64,000 nt of DNA from Escherichia coli (GTDB lineage: Bacteria > Pseudomonadota > Gammaproteobacteria > Enterobacterales > Enterobacteriaceae), in assembly GCF_003790525.1 (NCBI RefSeq), contig NZ_CP033632.1. One strand, 5' to 3'. The notes below the pieces were generated by a model. That model was not told where the DNA came from. It was given only the letters and a program-made list of their open reading frames with translations, and ran no database searches. How positions within the stretch are numbered: position 1 is the first letter of the stretch; each line of letters opens with the position of its first letter. A program made the translations under genes and the position numbers. Below, in pieces: positions 44,546 to 46,450 of this stretch.

Positions 44546-45406
44546 CTAACCTGAAGGCTCGCAAGAGCGCTCGACGGCCTCGTGCGGAGGCACGATCGGA
44601 GTGGTTCCGAAATGCTTCTCAAGATAGGTGACGCCGAACGTCACGATGTCCTGCGCGTCGAACAGGTAGCACTGAGCAAAGCCCACGACACCTTCTCGAT
44701 GGCGACCGAGCTTCACGTAAGCATTTGCTATAGTTTCAACCGCATCCGGCTTTCCTTCGATAGCAAAGCAATCGAGAATGCCGTTTGAATCGTAATCCGA
44801 TGCCGTTTTCCAGGCGACTTCACCGTCTCTTCCAAGCATCGGCATCTCATACGTCACCCACCGTTTGTTGGGGATATCGGCAACCGCCTCGGCGTAGTGC
44901 AATGCGGTAACGGAGTTTAGCGGCGCACCCAACAGCAGGGCCTTCCCGCCAAGGCGAACGAACCGCTCGACGGGCGATCCTTCCCCCAAGGCGTGACCGA
45001 GTTCGTGAGGCTCCGTCAGCGTTTCAGCCAGCGGACCAACCGCGACCATCGATGCATCGGGGTGCGCGCTGCGCCGCGCGCCGGGGGCTTGAACCAGAAA
45101 TTGATTCAGCAGGCCGAACCCACGGTAAGTCCCGGCTGTTGCGGGATCGAACGGCAGCCAGGTACGGCGGGCTTCGTCATCCAGCCGAGCGCCATTCAGA
45201 GTCTCCTCGTAGGGTGATCGGTCCCACGACGCGTATCCCATCACAGTGCCAGTCGGCCCAACCGCGGAGCGTAACGCGGCAACGACCGTCTCCGCTCCTC
45301 CTTCGACCGGACCAATCGCTTTAAGTGAGGCATGCACCATCAAGAGGTCACCGGTTTGGACTCCGAGTTTTTGAAGCGCCTCCGTTATTGCCTTCCGCGT
45401 ATGCAT
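44546..45406 (-). CDS. aac(3)-II: Aminoglycoside 3-N-acetyltransferase AAC(3)-II (IIa/IId/IIe type)
   Basis: MHTRKAITEALQKLGVQTGDLLMVHASLKAIGPVEGG...; start taken at MHTRK rather than upstream ATG. Confidence 0.92.
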   Translation of the reverse strand: MHTRKAITEALQKLGVQTGDLLMVHASLKAIGPVEGGAETVVAALRSAVGPTGTVMGYASWDRSPYEETLNGARLDDEARRTWLPFDPATAGTYRGFGLLNQFLVQAPGARRSAHPDASMVAVGPLAETLTEPHELGHALGEGSPVERFVRLGGKALLLGAPLNSVTALHYAEAVADIPNKRWVTYEMPMLGRDGEVAWKTASDYDSNGILDCFAIEGKPDAVETIANAYVKLGRHREGVVGFAQCYLFDAQDIVTFGVTYLEKHFGTTPIVPPHEAVERSCEPSG

Positions 45407-45441
45407 CGCGATATCTCCTCTAAACTGCAAAACACTATACG

Positions 45442-46450
45442 CTGATGAATCCCCTAATGATTTTGGTAAAAATCATTAAGTTAAGGTGGATACACATCTT
45501 GTCATATGATCAAATGGTTTCGCGAAAAATCAATAATCAGACAACAAGATGTGCGAACTCGATATTTTACACGACTCTCTTTACCAATTCTGCCCCGAAT
45601 TACACTTAAAACGACTCAACAGCTTAACGTTGGCTTGCCACGCATTACTTGACTGTAAAACTCTCACTCTTACCGAACTTGGCCGTAACCTGCCAACCAA
45701 AGCGAGAACAAAACATAACATCAAACGAATCGACCGATTGTTAGGTAATCGTCACCTCCACAAAGAGCGACTCGCTGTATACCGTTGGCATGCTAGCTTT
45801 ATCTGTTCGGGCAATACGATGCCCATTGTACTTGTTGACTGGTCTGATATCCGTGAGCAAAAACGGCTTATGGTATTGCGAGCTTCAGTCGCACTACACG
45901 GTCGTTCTGTTACTCTTTATGAGAAAGCGTTCCCGCTTTCAGAGCAATGTTCAAAGAAAGCTCATGACCAATTTCTAGCCGACCTTGCGAGCATTCTACC
46001 GAGTAACACCACACCGCTCATTGTCAGTGATGCTGGCTTTAAAGTGCCATGGTATAAATCCGTTGAGAAGCTGGGTTGGTACTGGTTAAGTCGAGTAAGA
46101 GGAAAAGTACAATATGCAGACCTAGGAGCGGAAAACTGGAAACCTATCAGCAACTTACATGATATGTCATCTAGTCACTCAAAGACTTTAGGCTATAAGA
46201 GGCTGACTAAAAGCAATCCAATCTCATGCCAAATTCTATTGTATAAATCTCGCTCTAAAGGCCGAAAAAATCAGCGCTCGACACGGACTCATTGTCACCA
46301 CCCGTCACCTAAAATCTACTCAGCGTCGGCAAAGGAGCCATGGGTTCTAGCAACTAACTTACCTGTTGAAATTCGAACACCCAAACAACTTGTTAATATC
46401 TATTCGAAGCGAATGCAGATTGAAGAAACCTTCCGAGACTTGAAAAGTCC
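45442..46450 (+). mobile_element. IS10 remnant (outside end plus 5' ~920 bp of tnp), truncated by IS26
   Basis: Begins CTGATGAATCCCCTAATGATTTTGGTAAAAATCATTAAG (IS10 outside end). Confidence 0.85.
45549..46450 (+). pseudogene. IS10 transposase, 3'-truncated
   Basis: MCELDILHDSLYQFCPELHLKRLNSLTLACHALLDCKTLTLTELG... Confidence 0.85.

Follow-up and report, generated by a model that had tools for sequence, protein, structure and literature searches.

We analyzed a window of 64,000 nucleotides from Escherichia coli (the whole stretch of DNA studied here; contig NZ_CP033632.1 of assembly GCF_003790525.1) in which the gentamicin resistance gene aac(3)-IId starts next to the outside end of a truncated copy of the insertion sequence (IS) IS10, and we consider here which promoter may drive the gene (Table 1). 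The gene is read from the minus strand, its ATG appearing as plus-strand 'cat' at 45404-45406 and its stop codon ending at 44546. The product of the 286-aa open reading frame (ORF) matches the NCBIfam profile AAC_3_II (NF033080) with 541.5 bits, above the curated cut-off of 480 and over its full length (profile positions 1-267 of 268), and public records with identical DNA are typed as aac(3)-IId at 100%. In records with the same DNA, the tmrB-like gene that follows is labeled 'AAA family ATPase' or 'tunicamycin resistance protein', and it is probably co-transcribed with aac(3)-IId since the gap between them is so short. Upstream of the ATG lies a leader that is common to aac(3)-IId and aac(3)-IIe up to position 45440 in all contexts compared (L001-L003, L006 and L007). 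It carries a Shine-Dalgarno sequence and a -10-like hexamer, TATAGT, which matches the -10 consensus at 5 of 6 positions.

The outside end of IS10, CTGATGAATCCCCT, begins at 45442 and occurs once in the window against 0.07 occurrences expected by chance; the terminal outside-end sequence CTGATGAATCCCCTAATGATTTT is also matched exactly at this position. The original prediction had placed the outside end at 45442 and the minus-strand start codon at 45406, 36 bp apart with 35 nt in between (45407-45441), and its coordinates proved exact. The remnant is 99.8% identical to nt 1-1009 of a full 1,329-bp IS10 found in an Edwardsiella tarda plasmid (NZ_CP099740.1, L010). It differs by two single-nucleotide polymorphisms at nt 410 and 425, so that its first 409 nt are the same as in a full-length copy flanked by a target-site duplication. 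The ORF for the IS4-family DDE transposase of the remnant (NCBIfam transpos_IS4_2, 301 bits, cut-off 152) reads inward and is truncated at nt 1009, and the promoter pIN and a Dam site, GATC (45508-45511), lie upstream of its start.

The original prediction also stated that IS10 carries an outward-directed promoter, pOUT, near its outside end. This was borne out by an intact gene for the antisense RNA RNA-OUT, which matches the full Rfam model (RF00240) with 98.8 bits (gathering score 41, E 1.3e-20) and is co-oriented with aac(3)-IId; read-out from pOUT is documented (PMC9330008; PMC4574204). The position of pOUT was taken from the RNA-OUT 5' end and spacing, and the hexamers given in Table 1 are our own assignment from the sequence. 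The 5' end of RNA-OUT puts the start of pOUT transcription 150 nt ahead of the ATG of aac(3)-IId, on the strand of this gene and reading toward it. Two other IS10 promoters, pIII and OUTIIp, were set aside: they are located at nt 1000-1230, read out of the inside end, are deleted here and face away from the gene.

Table 1. Features at the junction of aac(3)-IId and IS10, in window coordinates.
Feature	Position	Strand	Basis
tmrB-like AAA ATPase gene	43991..44533	-	ORF; 12 nt beyond the aac(3)-IId stop
aac(3)-IId coding sequence, gentamicin 3-N-acetyltransferase, 286 aa + stop	44546..45406	-	ORF listing, profile, identical records
Leader, 35 nt, between IS10 end and ATG	45407..45441	-	sequence
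Shine-Dalgarno sequence AGGAGA; GGAG core 8 nt before ATG	45414..45419	-	read from sequence
CACTATACG, one copy of the 9-bp IS10 target-site duplication	45433..45441	n/a	ancestor junction and L010
TATAGT, -10-like hexamer in leader, 2 bp from IS10 end	45434..45439	-	sequence
Truncated IS10 (ISVsa5/IS10R-like), nt 1-1009, outside end first, cut by IS26	45442..46450	+	
RNA-OUT antisense RNA gene; 5' end 45556 = pOUT start (IS10 nt 115)	45487..45556	-	Rfam RF00240
IS10 transposase gene, 5' part, ATG at IS10 nt 108, truncated	45549..46450	+	ORF 45549..46469
pOUT region: -10 TAAAAT 45569..45564; -35 position CAGAAT 45592..45587; 17-bp spacing	45564..45592	-	
IS26 truncating IS10; tnp on minus strand, co-directional with aac(3)-IId	46451..47270	-	IS6 transposase hidden Markov model, 278 bits

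Comparison with other aac(3)-II contexts allowed the history of the junction to be reconstructed. The contexts share the leader as far as CACTATAC and diverge past position 45440. In L001, L006 and L007, and in at least 639 plasmids, the leader adjoins the right inverted repeat (IRR) of Tn2/Tn3, reading CACTATAC followed by GGGGTCTGACGC...; in L002, native sequence continues for 9 bp beyond the leader and is followed by IS26; in L003 the leader adjoins ISAba14; and in L004 and L009 ISApu2 cuts within it. The junction in the window reads CACTATAC-G-CTGATGAAT, which therefore predicts that IS10 inserted one base inside the Tn2/Tn3 IRR and duplicated CACTATACG. A synthetic 97-nt query for such an ancestor, composed of the IS10 inside end, CACTATACG and GGGTCTGACGC..., matched one plasmid, the E. 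tarda plasmid mentioned above, at 100% over its full length. The order in this plasmid is tmrB, aac(3)-IId, CACTATACG, full 1,329-bp IS10, CACTATACG, GGGTCTGACGC..., blaTEM-1 and tnpR, so that the 9-bp duplication is present on both sides of the element; the window has lost the IS10 inside end, and a search of it for the missing half of the insertion, in the form of further IS10 or Tn3 IRR pieces, found none. G45441 is the first base of the former Tn2/Tn3 IRR. Sequence comparison thus shows that IS10 transposed into a pre-existing junction of aac(3)-IId with the Tn2/Tn3 IRR, with duplication of CACTATACG, and that it was cut later by IS26 to nt 1-1009.

The arrangement is widespread. A 141-bp stretch spanning the aac(3)-IId/IS10 junction was found in 745 PLSDB plasmids, and a 551-bp version reaching to IS10 nt 259 was covered to at least 80% in 740 plasmids and in 561 of 5,426 complete E. 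coli genomes. The IS10 junction is present in 745 of about 1,545 plasmids that have aac(3)-IId at an identity of at least 99%, or about half, and its carriers include Escherichia, Klebsiella, Salmonella, Shigella, Enterobacter, Raoultella and Edwardsiella. An exact junction of two known elements, identical in 745 plasmids and 561 E. coli genomes, is not a product of chance, and the arrangement, besides being very common, is probably functional. In its commonest form IS10 nt 1-1009 is followed by IS26 (about 310 records), and the sampled carriers also present rearranged forms of the same insertion, with a full IS10, tandem IS10, a 97-bp end duplication or two partial copies. Taken together, the sequences point to one IS10 insertion event followed by spread.

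Several individual records deserve mention. In pK196_KPC (NZ_MK312243.1, L012; 2793-3615) the IS10 outside end beside aac(3)-IId is doubled (nt 1-97, then nt 1-685) and nt 686-967 are internally deleted ahead of IS10 nt 968-1009, which is either a real rearrangement or an assembly artefact. In NZ_MF190369.1 (L004) the IS4-family element ISApu2 cuts the leader ~17 nt upstream of the aac(3)-IId ATG and TATAGT is removed; NZ_CP100690.1 (L009) has terminal sequence identical to the L004 element, the same leader cut and the same loss. In these two records aac(3)-IId must rely entirely on a promoter within or beyond the inserted element. Finally, in pA102-CTX-M-65 (NZ_MN816370.1, L005; 1737-3151) an aac(3)-IVa ORF takes the exact start-to-stop place of aac(3)-IId in an otherwise unchanged frame of tmrB, 35-nt leader, IS10 outside end (nt 1-606) and IS26. 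This is the sole record of its kind in PLSDB and may be the product of engineering (a marker swap) or of a rare replacement in nature; whichever its origin, a second ORF stands behind the same leader and pOUT.

The contexts also differ in what they place upstream of TATAGT (45439..45434), the -10 that the flanking DNA could contribute to a fusion promoter. At the IS26 junction the hexamer is paired as TTGCAA-17-TATAGT (weight-matrix score 11.4, -35 match to TTGACA 4/6), at the Tn2/Tn3 IRR as GTTCCA-17-TATAGT (8.2, 3/6) and at IS10 as ATCATT-16-TATAGT (5.0, 2/6). The other candidates in the IS10 end are AATCAT at 17 bp (0/6) and AAATCA at 18 bp (2/6), and nothing that we would call a -35-like hexamer was found there 16-18 bp from TATAGT. 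The junction comparison thus shows that the IS10 insertion retained the -10 and took away the Tn3-derived -35. TATAGT is likely the -10 of the fusion promoters reported for Tn3 with aacC2 and for IS26 with aacC3. As IS10 displaced the Tn2/Tn3-derived upstream sequence, some replacement promoter is needed. Ranking by weight matrix was rejected as a way of choosing it, pOUT (5.9) being no better than several candidates inside RNA-OUT or than the junction candidate (5.0). Similarly, a consensus sigma-70 promoter scan of both strands of 43800-47400 found no promoter, and this silence is uninformative because the scan misses even pOUT. As a separate observation, in L006 and L007, where a 135-bp Tn2 end is followed by IS26, the IS26 end and the Tn2 remnant form TTGCAA-18-TATACT toward aac(3)-IId (read by eye), which might act as a further hybrid promoter, upstream of the one made up of the Tn2 IRR and TATAGT.

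Given this arrangement, we regard it as probable, if far from certain, that the aac(3)-IId-tmrB mRNA is made mainly by read-through from IS10 pOUT. The insertion of IS10 into the leader/IRR junction, before its later truncation by IS26, cost the gene its Tn3-derived -35 region and brought the pOUT start to its present place upstream of the ATG. In the proposed next step, those pOUT transcripts that do not stop at IS10 nt 47 would cross the IS10 end and the leader into aac(3)-IId and tmrB, and TATAGT may add a minor second start. What lies beyond IS10 is not the same in every carrier (blaTEM-1, another IS10 copy, or IS26 leading on to sul1, CTX-M-55 or mrx), so that the constant upstream DNA is the IS10 outside end only, and pOUT is the sole experimentally characterized promoter within it. 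As expected for a promoter of an antisense RNA that reads into a neighboring gene, pOUT lies inside the IS, points outward on the same strand as the gene and is separated from it by no predicted terminator; none was predicted anywhere in 45300-45800, including between 45556 and 45406. Rho-dependent termination is unlikely because the untranslated stretch is short and translation starts 36 bp past the IS end. In a review, pOUT is described as reading into neighboring genes at about 10% of lacUV5 and as having raised acrEF expression, with Simons 1983 and Olliver 2005 cited for the read-out (PMC9330008), and chloramphenicol selects IS10 insertions upstream of cat (PMC4574204). The tables of the same review list an increase of aacC2 expression by Tn3 sequence (Jung 1998) and the action of IS26 (IS26/IS140) on aacC3 as a fusion promoter (Allmansberger 1985) (PMC9330008).

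Several points weigh against read-through from pOUT as the main source. RNA-OUT normally terminates at IS10 nt 47, which is position 45488 of the window (PMC5006887), so that transcripts reading through would be a minority of those begun at pOUT. TATAGT survives, with its 5/6 match, at the very edge of the element, and the weight-matrix score of pOUT (5.9) is about the same as that of ATCATT-16-TATAGT (5.0). In the predicted fold of the 150-nt 5' untranslated region (UTR), a long RNA-OUT hairpin is accompanied by an A/T hairpin where the IHF-site region lies. Part of the ribosome-binding region is paired in the minimum-free-energy structure, but the region is open in the centroid. A literature search on IS10 or ISVsa5 beside aac(3)-IId returned descriptive gene maps only and no promoter mapping. 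IS10 is retained to at least 149 nt, and pOUT with it, in 740 of the 745 junction plasmids, and we had considered this retention as a sign of selection and rejected it: the carriers sampled have a single insertion site in common and, for the most part, the IS26 cut at nt 1009 as well, and the retention of pOUT among them reflects descent from one insertion event and is no sign of independent selection. The suggestion of the original prediction that expression of the acetyltransferase may be IS-driven therefore stands in part. The geometry, the lack of a predicted terminator and the displacement of the old upstream sequence speak for it; exclusivity is what it loses, to three points that it did not contain, namely the TATAGT hexamer 2 bp from the IS10 end, the end of RNA-OUT at nt 47, and the co-directional minus-strand genes upstream (IS26 tnp, mrx and mph(A)).

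The first of these points leads to a rival that we find possible but doubtful, in which a promoter at the junction itself is the main driver and pOUT is minor. TATAGT would serve as the -10, with ATCATT at 16 bp or AATCAT at 17 bp as a weak -35 and the AATGATTTTTACCAAAATCATT stretch of the A/T-rich IS10 terminus acting in the manner of an UP element, and transcription would start ~20 nt before the ATG. Conservation of TATAGT wherever an aac(3)-II leader is kept agrees with this, as do the pairing of the same hexamer with IS26, the reported fusion promoters of Tn3 with aacC2 and IS26 with aacC3 (PMC9330008), the stop of RNA-OUT at nt 47 (PMC5006887) and a weight-matrix score near that of pOUT. 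It is weakened by -35 candidates that match TTGACA at 0-2 of 6 positions, by a -10 that is not extended with TG, by a consensus scan that finds no promoter here, and by an A/T-rich stretch that, in our own reading of the sequence, is out of register with the UP-element consensus.

Transcripts might instead arrive from farther upstream, across the IS10 remnant, from IS26 tnp or the mph(A)-mrx operon. All three genes are read from the minus strand, as is aac(3)-IId (IS26 tnp at 47225..46503, mrx at 48501..47254, mph(A) at 49403..48498), and no strong minus-strand terminator was predicted in 47400-45406. However, the DNA beyond IS10 varies among carriers (blaTEM-1, tandem IS10, IS26-sul1, IS26-CTX-M-55), and such read-through is therefore no general explanation for 745 plasmids; at least 1 kb of untranslated antisense IS10 would also be exposed to Rho. 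We consider this source very unlikely. Just as improbable, in our view, is that IS10 is a neutral or mildly harmful hitch-hiker which broke the Tn3 fusion promoter, lowered expression and spread by linkage in an IS26-bounded unit. A single insertion event ancestral to all carriers fits this account, and the bracketing of the module by IS26 (41096-41915 and 46451-47270) would explain spread without promoter selection. Against it, the IS10 form accounts for about half of aac(3)-IId plasmids and is found in about 10% of complete E. coli genomes, and the gene is expressed, since its presence is a good predictor of gentamicin resistance.

Read-out from pOUT of IS10/Tn10 into the his operon was reportedly described by Ciampi and colleagues in 1982. 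The proposed activation of aac(3)-IId resembles this and the other cases known for IS10/Tn10 (acrEF in Salmonella, cat in pSU vectors) in the element, in its outside end and in the promoter start at nt 115; the target is likewise co-oriented and near the IS end, and an antibiotic-resistance phenotype plausibly depends on it. In contrast to those cases, which are laboratory-selected chromosomal insertions, here an acquired plasmid-borne acetyltransferase is fixed in hundreds of plasmids, the IS is truncated and immobile, and the -10 of an older fusion promoter lies beside the IS end. The aacC2 and aacC3 fusion promoters share with it the gene family and the 35-nt leader, an element end at or within 9 bp of the same position, and an element that supplies the promoter function the gene lacks. 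They differ in that the fusion systems provide a -35 at 17 bp from TATAGT (TTGCAA from IS26, GTTCCA from the Tn3 IRR), whereas IS10 has no credible -35 there and brings a complete promoter 150 nt upstream. Similarly, Pout of IS1999 is an outward promoter of an antisense RNA in an IS4-family element, and it transcribes the acquired resistance genes blaOXA-48 and blaVEB-1 when they lie next to the element (PMC9330008, section 4.5). IS1999 is a different IS and its start was mapped experimentally, unlike the IS10-aac(3)-IId start, which is inferred from sequence. In this 2022 review of transposable-element-driven resistance expression, IS10 is listed for acrEF only (PMC9330008), and our literature searches returned only gene maps that show aac(3)-IId beside ISVsa5 or IS4.

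The wider surroundings of the junction are rich in IS26. The copy that truncates IS10 has terminal repeats GGCACTGTTGCAAA at 46451 and 47257-47270, and together with the copy at 41096-41915 it brackets a unit made of a DUF3883 gene, small ORFs, an intron-containing tRNA-Leu, tmrB, aac(3)-IId and the truncated IS10. Adjoining this unit is an mph(A)-mrx segment that is flanked by IS26 and read, like aac(3)-IId, from the minus strand. The region 49473-62803 contains at least four additional complete copies of IS26 as well as another IS26 end. The tRNA-Leu(UAA) gene (43599-43909, plus strand) is unannotated; it is found a short way downstream of tmrB, within the aac(3)-II module, and is split by a group I intron of ~213 nt (~43634-43846) after anticodon U34, the classical site of the cyanobacterial and plastid tRNA-Leu intron. 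With 36.8 bits (E 5.7e-7), the Rfam Intron_gpI match falls short of the gathering score, which is 50. In-silico splicing yields an 86-nt tRNA-Leu(taa) with CCA (ARAGORN), and both plain ARAGORN and the RefSeq annotation miss the gene. The intron-bearing tRNA-Leu may point to a chromosomal donor of the aac(3)-II/tmrB module. Apart from this module, a 50-bp palindrome built from a pair of IS10 ends (CTGATGAATCCCCTAATGATTTTGGTAAAAATCATTAGGGGATTCATCAG), with the 9-bp repeat GGCAGAGCG on either side, was observed between psiB and ssb in NZ_CP025952.1 (L008, ~2003-2052), and a 39-bp match of it recurs in other Klebsiella, E. coli and Salmonella plasmids (H138-H149). We see in this palindrome a likely example of the known 50-bp 'nearly precise excision' scar of Tn10/IS10.

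A further consequence of pOUT read-through, which we consider speculative and rather unlikely, would be a chimeric resistance mRNA that has the complete RNA-OUT stem-loop as its first 70 nt and through which resistance comes under control of Hfq and RNA-IN. In that case the stability and translation of the aac(3)-IId mRNA would be determined by the stable 5' hairpin and by Hfq binding, and RNA-IN, made from the pIN of the remnant itself or by further copies of IS10/Tn10, could modulate resistance by pairing with the 5' UTR. The level of resistance would thereby be coupled to IS10 antisense control and to IS10 copy number.

Since the mechanism is textbook, with acrEF, his and cat already known to be activated by IS10 pOUT, the conceptual gain is small; aac(3)-IId would be a new and clinically widespread case. 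The gene ranks among the principal determinants of resistance to gentamicin and tobramycin in Enterobacterales, and its promoter sets the level of expression, which bears on minimum inhibitory concentration, genotype-to-phenotype prediction and heteroresistance. If pOUT drives aac(3)-IId, then among the natural cases in which IS10 pOUT activates an acquired resistance gene this one would be much the most widespread, and the aac(3)-II leader would be a clear example of three mobile-element promoter solutions adopted in turn, from the Tn3 IRR, IS26 and IS10.

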